The notes under the pieces are model-generated. The model was not told the DNA's origin and did no database searches. It saw nothing but the letters and a program-made list of their open reading frames with translations. The translations under genes were made by a program, and so were the position numbers. Source: Escherichia coli (GTDB taxonomy: Bacteria > Pseudomonadota > Gammaproteobacteria > Enterobacterales > Enterobacteriaceae). From it: a stretch of DNA of 64,000 nt. The stretch lies in the NCBI RefSeq assembly GCF_016903815.1, contig NZ_CP069973.1. One strand, given 5' to 3'. The stretch's first letter is position 1, and each line of letters opens with the position of its first letter. Shown here piece after piece: positions 51,398 to 60,714 of the stretch.

Positions 51398-52144
51398 ATG
51401 AAAAATATTGCGACAGGCGACGTTCTTGAACGTATCCGCAGACTGGCCCCGTCACATGTAACCGCGCCATTCAAGACGGTAGCGGAGTGGCGCGAGTGGC
51501 AACTTTCCGAAGGCCAGAAACGTTGTGAGGAGATCAACCGTCAGAATCGTCAGTTGCGGGTGGAAAAAATTCTGAATCACTCTGGCATCCAGCCATTGCA
51601 CCGCAAATGCTCGTTTTCGAATTACCAGGTGCAGAACGAAGGGCAGCGATACGCGTTGAGTCAGGCGAAATCCATCGCTGATGAACTGATGACCGGGTGT
51701 ACAAATTTTGCGTTCAGCGGAAAACCTGGTACCGGGAAGAACCACTTAGCGGCAGCTATCGGGAATCGCCTGCTGAAAGACGGTCAGACAGTGATTGTGG
51801 TTACCGTGGCTGATGTTATGAGTGCCCTGCACGCCAGCTATGACGACGGGCAGTCAGGCGAAAAATTTTTGCGGGAACTGTGCGAAGTGGATCTGCTGGT
51901 TCTTGATGAAATTGGCATTCAGCGCGAGACGAAAAACGAGCAGGTGGTACTGCACCAGATTGTTGATCGCCGGACAGCGTCGATGCGCAGCGTGGGGATG
52001 CTGACAAACCTGAACTATGAGGCCATGAAAACATTGCTTGGCGAGCGGATTATGGATCGCATGACCATGAACGGCGGGCGATGGGTGAATTTCAACTGGG
52101 AGAGCTGGCGTCCGAATGTCGTCCAGCCAGGAATTGCGAAGTAA
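51398..52144 (+). CDS. ydaV: DnaC-like helicase loader (lambda P equivalent)
   Basis: 248 aa; Walker [11 protein letters not shown]; Walker B LLVLDEIG. Confidence 0.9.
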
Positions 52145-52166
52145 TTTTTACCGGGAGAAAAATTTA

Positions 52167-52928
52167 ATGGAGACTGTTTTTGACGTACTGAAAGCAATGG
52201 GAAAAGCCACATCCATAGAACTTGCTGCGCGACTTGATATCAGTCGTGAAGAAGTGCTGAACGAACTATGGGAACTGAAAAAGGCTGGTTTCGTTGATAA
52301 AAGCGCGTACACCTGGCGTGTGGCTGATAACAACGTTCAGCAGGAACAGCCAGCGCCGGCAGAACTGCCGGAAGAAACTACCACGGCAACAGTCGCGAAA
52401 ATTTCAGAGAGCGATTTAACTGCGACGATTGAACAACGTGGACCACAAACGGCGGATGAGCTGGCTACATTGTTTGGTACCACATCACGCAAAGTGGCTT
52501 CAACGCTGGCAATGGCAATCAGCAAAGGTCGTCTGCTTCGCGTAAATCAGGGCGGTAAATTTCGTTACTGCATACCGGGCGATAATTTACCAGCAGAGCC
52601 GAAAGCAGCATCGGTAGCGGAAACTGCTGGTAAGGCCTTTCCTCAGCCCGCAGGTGTTGCGTTACCAGTACAGGAGGCTGCAACACAGGAAGATATTAAA
52701 ACAGAAACTGTGGCGGACATTGTGCAGTCGCTGCCATCGTTTACTGAAACGCGAGCGGATGACCTGGTTTTACCATCACTGCATATGGCAAACCGCGAAC
52801 TGCGTCGGGCGAAAAATCATGTCCAGAAGTGGGAGCGTGTCTGCGCCGCGCTGCGGGAGCTGAACAAGCACAGGGATATTGTACGACAGATTACTGATTC
52901 TTCCCGCCATGTTGCATCGGAAAAGTGA
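52167..52928 (+). CDS. ydaW: Tandem winged-helix protein, apparent full-length form of the K-12 ydaW remnant
   Basis: ORF 52116-52928; start at [12 protein letters not shown]; two wHTH-like segments. Confidence 0.55.
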
Positions 52929-53366
52929 TTGCCGGAGGCACCTATGGCAAAAGTATTTACACCAGAAGAGCGGGAAAAAATTAAAGGGCAGGTTGTTGAA
53001 CTTGTACGTCTGAGCGGTCGCGAGACGTTACGGGCTCTGGAGGCTAAAACCGGTGCATCAAGGTATTACATAAGCACTCTCGCCAGAGAACTGGTCGCCA
53101 GTGGTGATGTTTACAATTCAGGCTACGGATTATTCCCGTCTGAGCAGGCGCGTAAAGACTGGCAAAACGCCCGCAAAAAACTATCGAGGGCAAAGGTGAA
53201 GAAACCTGCTGTAGTTGATCCGGACCTTATCTGGTCATTACCAGACGGAGAAATACGCCGCTATGACAGGCGTCTGAATATAATCTGTCGCGAGTGCCGG
53301 AAGAGCGAAGTCATGCAGCGTGTACTGGCGTTCTATCAGGGTAATTTTCAGGATGTGCTGTTGTGA
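52929..53366 (+). CDS. Hypothetical prophage protein (145 aa) with HTH-like segment
   Basis: ORF abutting the previous stop; prophage-typical codon usage. Confidence 0.55.
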   Translation: MPEAPMAKVFTPEEREKIKGQVVELVRLSGRETLRALEAKTGASRYYISTLARELVASGDVYNSGYGLFPSEQARKDWQNARKKLSRAKVKKPAVVDPDLIWSLPDGEIRRYDRRLNIICRECRKSEVMQRVLAFYQGNFQDVLL

Positions 53367-53527
53367 GCCAAATTAACAATCAGGGAACTGCGTGAACTGA
53401 AAGAGAAATCATAATCCAAATCTGAATAATTAAATTTAGCACTGTAAATAAAATTTAATCCTTAACCGGAGGGGGGGGCTGCACCCTCAAAATATTAGGA
53501 GGCGGCCCGAAAGGGCGGTAATGAAAA

Positions 53528-54031
53528 ATGACTGAATTAACCAAAAAGCAATTAATCGAAGAAGCTAAATTAAAAATAGCGATTGAGAAATGCCACCCCA
53601 ATTCAGGGATGGCACGGGTAGAGGGCGAATTATTCAAAATTGCTCTGGCATCGCTGGAAGCAGAGCCAGTTGGTGATTTTTATGAATACAAACCGGATGA
53701 CTGGTATCAGCGTTCGGCTGGAGATAAAGCGCCAAAATGGACGCCACCCTATGCCGTTTTTCCAGCGCCCGTAGTGCCGGAAGAAATGGATTTGCTTACA
53801 TGCCATCTCGATGGTGTAACTGAAACATATGCTGAGGGATGGAACGCTTGCCGCGCTGCCCTGCTTCAGGGCAAAGGGGAGCCCGGGAAACAAGTTCGCG
53901 AATTGACAATGCTGGTTAAACAATTGGTTAGTCAACTGAAGAAACCGAAACCGGGCTGCAAATTGCCGGATAAAGTGATGGACTACCTGGAGCGAAGCGG
54001 ACTTATAAGCGTGGAGGATGTTTTACGATGA
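53528..54031 (+). CDS. Hypothetical prophage protein (167 aa)
   Basis: ORF with AGGAGG SD upstream; no family recognised. Confidence 0.55.
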   Translation: MTELTKKQLIEEAKLKIAIEKCHPNSGMARVEGELFKIALASLEAEPVGDFYEYKPDDWYQRSAGDKAPKWTPPYAVFPAPVVPEEMDLLTCHLDGVTETYAEGWNACRAALLQGKGEPGKQVRELTMLVKQLVSQLKKPKPGCKLPDKVMDYLERSGLISVEDVLR

Positions 54032-54111
54032 CCTGGCCTGAAGCATTCACAACGGTAGGAATTGCGATGGCGGTGGCGCTGGTGGTGTATTCGATTTGCC
54101 GCTGGGGTTGA
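54028..54111 (+). CDS. Small hydrophobic peptide (27 aa) coupled to the upstream gene
   Basis: ATGA start/stop overlap; MTWPEAFTTVGIAMAVALVVYSICRWG; one predicted TM helix. Confidence 0.4.
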   Translation: MTWPEAFTTVGIAMAVALVVYSICRWG

Positions 54112-54124
54112 TAATACTAAATAA

Positions 54125-54143
54125 CCAGCCCTTATGGGGCTGG
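54125..54143. terminator. Bidirectional hairpin terminator
   Basis: CCAGCCC-TTAT-GGGGCTGG between convergent genes. Confidence 0.6.
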
Positions 54144-59084: not shown

Positions 59085-59214
59085 CTGAGTCGGCAGAATC
59101 TCCAACAAAAACACGACGTGTAGCAAAGTCTGTAGTACTTTGTGTTGGAGTTGGTTTTGGTGCCACGGGTTGCTGAGGTTTATTTTCACCTTGTGGTTTG
59201 TTTTTTTCAGACAT
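59053..59214 (-). CDS. Small Pro/Gln-rich ORF (53 aa) convergent with and overlapping the membrane-protein gene
   Basis: AAGAGGA SD; MSEKNKPQGENKPQQPVAPKPTPTQSTTDFATRRVFVGDSADSVIEHIKKQPR. Confidence 0.4.
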   Translation of the reverse strand: MSEKNKPQGENKPQQPVAPKPTPTQSTTDFATRRVFVGDSADSVIEHIKKQPR

Positions 59215-59307
59215 AAAAATCCTCTTTGTTTGAATTGTTACTTTTGGCGATTTAACGATATCAAACACGAGTATATACCGCCAGAAGCTTAATCTGGCAC
59301 TCCATCT

Positions 59308-59333
59308 GGCCCCGGCATGTCCCGGGGCTTTTT
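59308..59333 (+). terminator. Strong rho-independent terminator before the lysis cassette (tR'-like)
   Basis: GGCCCCGG-CATGT-CCCGGGGC followed by TTTTTCGTTGTT. Confidence 0.7.
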
Positions 59334-59422
59334 CGTTGTTAGGCTCTGGAAACATCCTCGACTTCTTGTTAGCAAGCCTGAGAGCCTGAATCTTACACTT
59401 AGCACCATCCGAACTCTCGGAG

Positions 59423-59773
59423 GTGAGGCTTATGAAAATGCACAATGCCCCTCATTCCTGGCCTGACTTACTGGAACTCTTACAAAGTTGGTGGCGTGGA
59501 GATACGCCGCTGGGTGCAGTGGTTATGTCAATTATTATGGCTGGTTTGCGCATTGCCTATTTTGGCGGTGGCGGCGGCTGGAAACGAAAAACGCTTGAGA
59601 TTCTGCTTTGTGGTGCTCTGACGCTGACCTTTGCATCCGCGCTTGAGTATGTCGGATGGCCTAAATCACTTTCTGTTGCCATTGGTGGTGGGGTGGGGCT
59701 GATTGGTGTTGATGCTATTCGTGGTGCGGCAATGAGGGTCATCGGTAACAAGTTCGGTGCCCATAAGGAGTAA
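59423..59773 (+). CDS. Lambda S-like class I holin
   Basis: 116 aa ORF; M-R-L-M-K-M dual-start motif; three TM segments; directly upstream of R-like endolysin. Confidence 0.8.
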   Translation: MRLMKMHNAPHSWPDLLELLQSWWRGDTPLGAVVMSIIMAGLRIAYFGGGGGWKRKTLEILLCGALTLTFASALEYVGWPKSLSVAIGGGVGLIGVDAIRGAAMRVIGNKFGAHKE

Positions 59774-59776
59774 TTA

Positions 59777-60253
59777 ATGCAGACACTTAATTCCCAGCGT
59801 AAAGCTTTCCTTGATATGGTGGCATGGTCAGAAGGAACAGATAACGGACGGCAGAAAACCAGAAATCACGGTTATGATGTTATTGTCGGTGGCGAACTGT
59901 TCACTGATTACTCCGATCACCCCCGCAAACTTGTCACGCTAAATCCGAAACTCAAATCAACAGCCGCTGGACGTTACCAGCTTCTTTCACGCTGGTGGGA
60001 TGCCTACCGCAAGCAACTTGGCCTGAAAGATTTTTCTCCAGAAAGTCAGGATGCTGTAGCGCTGCAGCAGATTAAAGAGCGTGGCGCTTTGCCGATGATT
60101 GATCGCGGTGATATCCGTCAGACTATCGACCGTTGCAGCAATATATGGGCTTCACTGCCGGGCGCTGGTTATGGTCAGTTCGAGCATAAGGCTGACAGTC
60201 TGATTGCAAAATTCAAAGAAGCTGGCGGAACGGTCAGAGAGATTGAGGTATGA
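59777..60253 (+). CDS. Lambda R-like endolysin (lytic transglycosylase)
   Basis: 158 aa; near identical to remembered lambda R ([31 protein letters not shown]). Confidence 0.95.
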
Positions 60254-60714
60254 GCAGAGTAACCGCGATTATCTCCGCTCTGGTTATCTGCATCGTCGTC
60301 TGCCTGTCATGGGGTGTTAATCATTACCGTGATAACGCCATCGCCTACAAAGAACAGCGCGACAAAAATGCCAGAGAACTGAAGCTGGCGAACGCGGCAA
60401 TTACTGACATGCAGATGCGTCAGCGTGATGTTGCTGCGCTCGATGCAAAATACACGAAGGAGTTAGCTGATGCGAAAGCTGAAAATGATGCTCTGCGTGA
60501 TGATGTTGCCGCTGGTCGTCGTCGGTTGCACATCAAAGCAGTCTGTCAGTCAGTGCGTGAAGCCACCACCGCCTCCGGCGTGGATAATGCAGCCTCCCCC
60601 CGACTGGCAGACACCGCTGAACGGGATTATTTCACCCTCCGGGAACGACTGGTAATGATGCAGGCCCAACTTGAAGGTGCTCAGCAATACATAACCGAGC
60701 AGTGTTTAAAGTAA
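60250..60714 (+). CDS. rzpR: Spanin inner-membrane subunit Rz; intact counterpart of the K-12 rzpR pseudogene
   Basis: 154 aa; N-terminal TM; matches lambda Rz. Confidence 0.9.
60470..60655 (+). CDS. rzoR: Spanin outer-membrane lipoprotein Rz1, embedded in Rz
   Basis: 61 aa; lipobox LVVVGC; Pro-rich; +1 frame inside Rz. Confidence 0.9.

Follow-up and report, generated by a model that had tools for sequence, protein, structure and literature searches.

A Rac-family prophage in ttcA of Escherichia coli with a probably undeleted middle and a predicted complete lysis cassette

The DNA analysed here, which we call the window, is a stretch of 64,000 nucleotides (nt) of the Escherichia coli chromosome (contig NZ_CP069973.1), and its right-hand part carries a lambdoid prophage integrated in ttcA, the site that is also occupied by the prophage Rac of E. 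coli K-12. We concentrate on an 8.6-kb block of this prophage (positions 52116-60714) that extends from the ydaW region to the end of Rz, and that most likely represents the middle of a full-length Rac-family prophage, much of which is missing from K-12 Rac. A preliminary description of the window had listed about 8.5 kb of open reading frames (ORFs) in this place, and all of them are present where it put them and are uninterrupted.

Window positions 32116-64000 are 100% identical to strain 7/2 (NZ_CP023820.1) over 31,885 bp, and positions 41545-64000 are 100% identical to ON470614, a GenBank record labelled as a phage. At least 30 complete RefSeq genomes, mainly those of human clinical isolates, contain the 8.6-kb block itself at 100% identity, and at least 80% of its exact sequence is present in 91 of 5,426 complete E. 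coli genomes. The same sequence has been deposited in GenBank as vB_EcoS-666R9, -673R7 and -613R10, whose hosts are carbapenemase-producing clinical isolates. We considered whether vB_EcoS-666R9 and the other phage records represent isolated virions and rejected this, as the source preprint leads back to PHASTER "intact" predictions from draft genomes; the vB_EcoS records are therefore not evidence of phage activity.

Lysis genes, late signals and core genes of the block

The right end of the block holds a lysis cassette. Its first gene (59432..59773, plus strand) encodes a class I holin of the lambda family, 113 amino acids (aa) long and starting Met-Lys-Met, that matches TIGR01594 (phage holin, lambda family) with 139 bits against a cutoff of 55, covering positions 1-107 of 107, and also matches phrog_126. 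Three membrane helices are predicted. The protein had been described beforehand as a lambda-type holin, which is right as to its family, but it is only 24% identical to lambda S. The next gene, R (59777..60253, plus strand), encodes an endolysin of 158 aa, a lambda-type lytic transglycosylase. Its reported near-identity to lambda R is borne out: 149 of 158 residues are identical (94.3%), the catalytic Glu19 of R-type transglycosylases is kept, and the protein matches the lambda lysozyme structure (PDB 1AM7) at E = 2e-101.

The cassette closes with the spanin genes. Rz (60250..60714, plus strand) encodes an i-spanin of 154 aa that is 92.2% identical to lambda Rz and covers positions 1-154 of 154 of phrog_13, and Rz1 (60470..60655, plus strand), which lies inside Rz in the +1 frame, encodes a 61-aa o-spanin lipoprotein that is 91.8% identical to lambda Rz1 and matches phrog_3198. 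Rz1 keeps a VVGC lipobox and a proline-rich stretch, and the cysteines of the spanin disulfides (the equivalents of Rz Cys99 and Cys152) are kept as well. The identity to lambda and the full-length matches to PHROG spanin families together point to a two-component spanin. The preliminary description had named inactivating mutations in the holin or endolysin as grounds for doubt, and the holin, R, Rz and Rz1 genes all have their start codons and are free of frameshifts and premature stops.

Upstream of the lysis genes lies a gene for a putative late antiterminator, Q (57751..58293, plus strand; 180 aa). The protein matches phrog_753 ("anti-termination protein Q-like") at E = 4e-79 and Pfam DUF1133 over its full length, with a weak match to Phage_antitermQ (PF06530, E = 8e-5). 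It is only 18% identical to lambda Q, and no significant sequence match was found in the PDB, where Q21 structures came up at E = 0.87. A consensus scan gave a pR'-like promoter that overlaps the end of the Q-like gene (58228-58257, plus strand) and a tR'-like intrinsic terminator with a strong hairpin and a T run (58374-58399, plus strand). A further hairpin resembling an intrinsic terminator, with 8 pairs, 7 of them G-C, and then a T run, is located about 100 bp upstream of the holin gene (59308..59329, plus strand). The order of these matches, with a late promoter-like site and a terminator-like hairpin after the Q-like gene and the holin downstream, is the one expected for pR' and tR'.

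By homology to lambda, we can outline how these parts would act together. Upon derepression, early rightward transcription would reach the Q-like gene, whose product would modify RNA polymerase starting at the 58228-58257 promoter, and the modified polymerase would transcribe the lysis genes after passing the two terminators (58374-58399 and 59308-59329). The holin, with its Met-Lys-Met dual start, would then permeabilise the inner membrane, R would cleave the peptidoglycan, and the Rz/Rz1 spanin would disrupt the outer membrane.

The left part of the block begins with genes that the preliminary description took for three nin-region ORFs, a description that stands by position and fails by identity. 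They encode a full-length YdaW of 253 aa (52167..52928, plus strand; DUF1627 by RefSeq annotation, phrog_630 at E = 3e-129), a DUF977 protein that PHROG lists as a Ren-like exclusion protein and that has been deposited as LygF (52944..53366, plus strand; phrog_142, E = 2e-45), and a hypothetical phage protein of 167 aa (53528..54031, plus strand; phrog_660, E = 3e-50, PHROG function unknown). Directly ahead of the Q-like gene are genes for a DUF1367 protein of the PHROG NinB/Orf group (56865..57464, plus strand; phrog_319, E = 2e-68) and a DUF1364 or YbcO-like protein (57464..57754, plus strand; phrog_131, E = 5e-42), both also annotated by RefSeq. When ten proteins of the block were tested against NCBIfam, nine had no match above the curated cutoff.

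Rac family membership and the deletions of K-12 Rac

The prophage starts at a 26-bp attL core (TTGTTCAGGTTGTATTGTTCTTTCTT; 41509..41534) that lies inside ttcA and is identical to the 26-bp repeat of K-12 Rac attL and attR. The same core is found between sitA and uspF, in direct orientation in strain 222 and on the opposite strand in strain 7/2, and from the attL at window position 41509 to the direct attR of strain 222 the prophage measures 53.1 kb. Integration in ttcA between Rac att cores, with attR next to uspF in strain 222, is what a member of the Rac family should display, and the left arm is likewise of the Rac type. This arm (int, xis, ralR/RalA, recT, recE, racC, ydaE, kilR and sieB) is 98.6% identical to K-12 at the nucleotide level over 11.6 kb, and its RalA RNA gives an Rfam match of 225 bits. 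The six left-arm proteins that we compared with K-12 are 98.5-100% identical, a range that holds for Int, Xis, RecT, RecE, KilR, SieB, YdaV and TrkG, and YdaT is 94% identical.

The preliminary description had listed int, xis, racR, ydaSTUV and recET as present. This applies to int, xis, recET, ydaT and ydaV, but the K-12 immunity genes are replaced: the repressor is 17% identical to RacR and the cro-like protein 15% identical to YdaS, and the replication initiator is 44% identical to K-12 YdaU. Window positions 49229-50096, which hold the repressor and cro-like genes, gave no blastn match to K-12 Rac, and positions 50524-51017, which make up most of the replication-initiator gene, are without nucleotide similarity to it, with flanking genes that are 92-99% identical. 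By this alignment, the difference in the immunity region and the replication initiator is a clean mosaic replacement, and the immunity specificity of this copy probably differs from that of K-12 Rac. The 139-aa repressor has matches limited to helix-turn-helix (HTH)-type regulator families, and its RefSeq annotation is also HTH only. Because the immunity genes differ from those of K-12 and the repressor is of this HTH-only kind, inducibility by the SOS response or by mitomycin C is uncertain.

For the comparison with K-12 we used Rac of MG1655 (NC_000913.3, 1408000-1438000) as the reference. Blastn of the window gave collinear matches at 37610-49228 (98.6%), 50097-50523 (92.5%), 51018-52616 (95.8%) and then 60270-62700 (99.9%). 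The alignment to K-12 that the preliminary description had proposed for locating the breakpoints thus delimits an interval of 7,653 bp (52617..60269) that is missing from K-12 Rac, and blastn did not find its content elsewhere in the MG1655 Rac region. The MG1655 annotation agrees with the preliminary description, according to which K-12 keeps only a ydaW remnant, the rzpR pseudogene and rzoR before trkG, with rzoR placed inside rzpR.

At the K-12 junction, the parental sequences have only the dinucleotide TA in common, and this 2-bp microhomology points to illegitimate recombination rather than to a homologous or site-specific event. Here, codon 150 of ydaW is joined to codon 8 of Rz, so that K-12 has lost everything after the first 150 ydaW codons, together with the first seven codons of Rz. 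K-12 YdaW (186 aa) consists of the first 150 residues of full-length YdaW followed by 36 residues that come from the Rz1 reading frame of the Rz region, and its gene (L002:14753-15313) corresponds to window positions 52167-52616 joined to 60270-60382. The base-by-base correspondence identifies K-12 YdaW, which is listed in databases as a protein, as a fusion artefact of the deletion. Among 5,426 complete E. coli genomes, 338 contain the junction sequence as one uninterrupted stretch.

We also compared K-12 Rac with a composite full-length prophage, taken from strain 7/2 as far as gene K and from strain 222 beyond it. Relative to this composite, K-12 Rac has a second deletion of 11.6 kb, which runs from the ParB-like gene ynaK to ydaY and removes the terminase, portal, head and tail shaft genes, and a third of 8.5 kb, which runs from the tape-measure gene to lom.

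Altogether, we read positions 52116-60714 as the undeleted middle of a full-length Rac-family lambdoid prophage in ttcA, reaching from the post-replication genes to the end of the lysis cassette, and we give this reading a probability of roughly 0.88. Each gene of the 52617-60269 interval is an open, uninterrupted ORF, and RefSeq annotates intact coding sequences for them in the identical genomes. Judged by the alignment, K-12 Rac is the derived form, having lost 7,653 bp at this place. Several points weigh against the reading. The assignment of Q is based on position, a PHROG label and a weak Pfam match, and our comparison with Pfam and the PDB found no solved or tested member of DUF1133. Shuffled sequence gave promoter and terminator matches at least as often as the scanned region did, and the pR' and tR' assignment therefore follows from position. 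Finally, the block is mosaic, with unequal identity to K-12 on its two sides and unrelated immunity genes nearby, and other E. coli place an RrrD-type lysozyme gene before the same Rz-trkG; we take up these last points below.

The right end of the prophage and the alternatives

Head and tail genes had been predicted to lie beyond the window, and they were found after trkG in strain 7/2, which is identical to the window over the compared region. There, trkG is followed by a ParB-like gene, the small and large terminase genes, and genes for a portal, a minor head protein, a scaffold-like protein and a P22-type capsid, and further on by genes for head-tail connectors, the tail tube and the tape measure, with ydaY between the latter two, and by M, L and K, each of them annotated as intact; I, J, lom and tail-fibre genes come next. 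The annotation of this strain shows no pseudogene from int to gene K. The remainder of the prophage can be followed in strain 222, which has intact I, J and lom genes, a split side-tail-fibre gene, a frameshifted dinI-like gene, sitABCD and then the direct attR, which adjoins uspF and ompN. The iron/manganese transporter operon sitABCD (L007:12670-16119 in strain 222) is the last cargo, directly beside attR, and trkG is carried too.

Another distal end is present in at least two genomes, those of strains 7/2 and AR_0015, where the prophage stops in pinQ-ydfK-ynfT-ydfJ', the terminal part of a second lambdoid prophage at the Qin site. The piece with sitABCD, attR and uspF lies about 249 kb off in strain 7/2, on the other strand and attached to this second prophage. 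Strains 7/2 and AR_0015 (L005, L006 and L008) differ from 222 (L007) by an inversion that spans the region of the replication terminus and measures about 250 kb. Its source is recombination between near-identical tail genes of the Rac-like prophage and the Qin-site (ydfJ) prophage, with the crossover narrowed by a three-way comparison to the tail genes that both have in common, at L005 positions 1673 to about 7500. Since attL and attR are mutually inverted in 7/2 and AR_0015, Int and Xis could not excise the phage genome in these strains.

Tail gene I also varies. Beside the Rac-type K it has a 1-nt deletion (A4 to A3) that truncates the protein near codon 73 (L005:2062 versus L007:2148). Among the 60 best-matching genomes, the frameshifted allele was found in 37 and the intact allele in at least 23, figures that are counts of alleles and not of collinear versus inverted arrangements. 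Strain 2900 has the frameshifted allele both beside the block and at a second site, and the gene I protein encoded by the second prophage of strain 7/2 is intact and identical. A query of 1.2 kb spanning the junction of K and I was tried as a classifier of collinear and inverted arrangements and rejected, because the sole difference in its span is the 1-nt indel in gene I.

These observations bear on an alternative in which an intact lysis cassette sits in a prophage that is, taken as a whole, defective or locked in, and in which the block survives as a well-preserved remnant. We rate this at a little under even odds. The right ends of 7/2 and AR_0015, both 100% identical to the window over the compared region, have been replaced by the end of the Qin-site prophage, with the Rac attR core of 7/2 far off in opposite orientation, and gene I is truncated in the majority of the best-matching genomes. 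The split side-tail-fibre gene and the frameshifted DinI-like gene fit the same picture, as does the weak induction by mitomycin C of KingRac, a related active phage (PMC6731689). Strain 222, however, is collinear and combines a direct attR with an intact gene I, strain 7/2 is free of annotated pseudogenes from int to gene K, and the gene I protein of its second prophage could complement in trans. Phage lambda PaPa is viable with a frameshifted stf, which also counts against a locked-in prophage. The window ends at 64000, ahead of the parts in which these arrangements differ. Lytic competence of the prophage is plausible from its gene content, and phage production depends on parts outside the window, which vary among otherwise identical strains. 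The arrangement, collinear or split by the inversion, and the state of gene I decide whether a prophage with trkG and sitABCD as cargo can still move.

Slightly less probable is a second alternative, in which the block is a different mosaic module that recombined into a Rac-like backbone, and the ancestor of K-12 Rac may have carried a different set of nin, Q, holin or endolysin genes. The sharp inequality in identity to K-12 across the 7,653-bp deletion (95.8% on its left versus 99.9% on its right) would be expected in this case, and so would the different alleles of the immunity and replication-initiator genes and the presence of at least 80% of the exact block in only 91 of the 5,426 genomes. 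Rac-SA53 and the "phage Rac" of strain 442/2 cover only 31-36% of the block at 85-87% identity (36% at 87% for Rac-SA53). Moreover, the R-Rz-trkG arrangement was found in 261 genomes, and it is in further genomes that an RrrD-type lysozyme gene precedes the same Rz-trkG; going by this gene order, a complete lysis cassette ahead of trkG is common. Yet both K-12 breakpoints fall within genes that are full-length here, ydaW and Rz, and one simple deletion gives the K-12 junction to the base. As the block is mosaic, the K-12 ancestor need not have carried exactly this block. The preliminary description spoke of a full lysis cassette being restored; holin, R, Rz and Rz1 are indeed complete, but the wording is loose, as the prophage is a mosaic Rac relative and not necessarily the ancestor of the K-12 copy.

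Accessory genes and comparison with known systems

Taken as the undeleted middle of a Rac-family prophage, the block contains two AT-rich insertions that likely carry genes expressed in the lysogen. A BstA-family defence gene, hok/sok and a DUF1971 gene are located in the first, and a gene for a 189-aa protein and a convergent 53-aa ORF in the second. GC content is 31-44% across 54300-56700 and 41% across 58300-59100, compared with about 50% in the phage core genes, which fits acquired accessory genes.

The KilA-N protein of the first insertion (54152..54925, minus strand; 257 aa) is assigned by Pfam, PHROG and PADLOC to the BstA abortive-infection family. Its N-terminal KilA-N domain (Pfam, residues 14-112, E = 1e-26) is joined to a BstA-specific C-terminal region (PADLOC BstA, residues 119-238, E = 3e-21), and phrog_6287 ("BstA") is matched at E = 3e-89 over profile positions 6-303 of 304.

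The hok/sok type I toxin-antitoxin locus (55245..55573, plus strand) was recognised from Rfam, a promoter scan and PHROG. A promoter-like site with 10 of 12 consensus matches (55245-55273, plus strand) is followed by an Rfam sok match (RF01794, 55280-55450, plus strand; 101.5 bits against a gathering score of 59) that abuts the start of hok. The hok-like gene of the preliminary description is therefore present with its sok match, but its ORF is short (55448-55573, plus strand): it has 41 aa where a full-length Hok has about 50, matches phrog_251 only over profile positions 1-38 of 50, and leaves the Hok consensus near codon 37, apparently through the loss of 1 nt. The Hok toxin may be inactive, though the sok/leader RNA region is well conserved; RefSeq nonetheless labels the ORF as Hok/Gef family.

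The third gene of this insertion encodes a 113-aa DUF1971 protein that is YeaR-like, or like the N-terminus of TehB (55656..55997, minus strand). RefSeq calls it "DUF1971" or "TehB family", and its NCBIfam TehB match (E = 9e-13) is under the curated cutoff. Between this gene and the DUF1367 gene is an AT-rich stretch of 843 bp with 31% GC (56022..56864), for which the ORF list has no entry above 43 aa. The stretch was considered as a known RNA, and this was rejected, as no Rfam family matched at gathering thresholds. PADLOC gave no match for the DUF977 protein, hok, the DUF1971 protein, the 189-aa protein or a 71-aa ORF at 59053-59268. In the chromosomal flank upstream of the prophage, an Rfam scan placed the small RNAs McaS and FnrS at 31000-31095 and 38739-38856, and dgcM is interrupted by IS1 in a genome identical to the window.

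The second insertion fills the slot that separates Q from the holin, where Stx phages carry their stx genes. It encodes a membrane protein of 189 aa (58515..59084, plus strand) that belongs to phrog_11870, whose PHROG function is unknown, and that has no Pfam match even at E <= 10. The 53-aa ORF (59053..59214, minus strand; phrog_14506) overlaps the 3' end of this gene, and its protein, which includes the motif R-x-[FL]-VGDSA-[DE], is conserved in loci of Serratia and Pantoea. Across Enterobacterales, nearly all homologues of the 189-aa protein have exactly this length; they come from Klebsiella, Citrobacter, Serratia, Providencia, Proteus, Morganella, Yersinia and Pantoea. Six loci of Serratia and Pantoea have the gene in this slot too, downstream of a Q of another family (PF06530 or PF03589) and upstream of other holin and endolysin types.

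An AlphaFold model of the 189-aa protein (mean predicted local distance difference test score, pLDDT, 83.4) has three long helices. Searched against AFDB50, it resembles SLATT-domain and Pycsar-effector membrane proteins, with template modelling (TM) scores of 0.75-0.82 and E values of 1e-5 to 1e-3, as well as some proteins annotated as holins; in the PDB and BFVD it found nothing significant, only generic helical-bundle noise. It is a tentative and rather doubtful idea that the protein and its 53-aa partner form a conserved, uncharacterised two-gene accessory cassette, whose SLATT-like predicted fold would fit a defence or exclusion effector that damages membranes or else an accessory lysis factor. 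The 53-aa protein could be a regulator or an antidote of its neighbour. The 189-aa protein is the sole part of the region that is not already explained.

Compared with the BstA proteins of Owen et al. 2021 (PMC8585504), the KilA-N protein of the block is similarly prophage-borne and has an N-terminal KilA-N domain and BstA matches in PHROG and PADLOC. It differs in having 257 aa against the 304 positions of the PHROG profile, and its likeness to BstA is one of sequence. A prophage that carries BstA needs a cognate aba DNA element for lytic replication; each BstA has its own such element, and these elements follow no common consensus (PMC8585504); none was identified here in a reading of the upstream sequence.

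With the lambda S-R-Rz/Rz1 cassette, the lysis genes share their order and overlaps, the placing of Rz1 in the +1 frame of Rz, the NCBIfam family of the holin and its Met-Lys-Met start. Unlike in lambda, the holin has a sequence only 24% identical to S, the antiterminator belongs to another family (DUF1133), a two-gene accessory cassette and a second terminator stand between tR' and the holin, and Rz is followed by trkG rather than by bor.

The prophage and K-12 Rac share the ttcA site and the 26-bp att core, and YdaT, YdaV, Rz from codon 8 onwards, Rz1/rzoR and trkG are common to both. In contrast to the present type, K-12 Rac is without the 7,653-bp, 11.6-kb and 8.5-kb segments, and its lomR carries IS5. 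The repressor and cro-like alleles of the two are unrelated, YdaU is 44% identical, and the present type ends with sitABCD beside attR, as seen in strain 222. As by-products, this comparison maps the three K-12 Rac deletions to the base and marks K-12 YdaW as a product of the first.

The finding is correct, but prophages of this kind and the sequence itself were known before: full-size and sometimes active Rac-like prophages have been published, and the sequence is in RefSeq and GenBank. Full-sized Rac-like prophages have been described (PMC5917428). For Sp10 and CP-933R of O157:H7, both at ttcA, it has been stated that they keep their replication machinery and can infect other strains (PMC4632033). 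In the mouse gut, the defective Rac of K-12 was displaced by KingRac, a Rac-like prophage of 46.8 kb at ttcA that forms particles and lysogenises K-12, in addition to its weak inducibility by mitomycin C (PMC6731689). The present prophage resembles KingRac, Sp10, CP-933R and the LT-II prophage Rac-SA53 as a lambdoid prophage at ttcA that is full-sized, or 46.8 kb in the case of KingRac. It differs from these full-size relatives in its mosaic middle, a variant that has been deposited as a phage only through PHASTER prediction.

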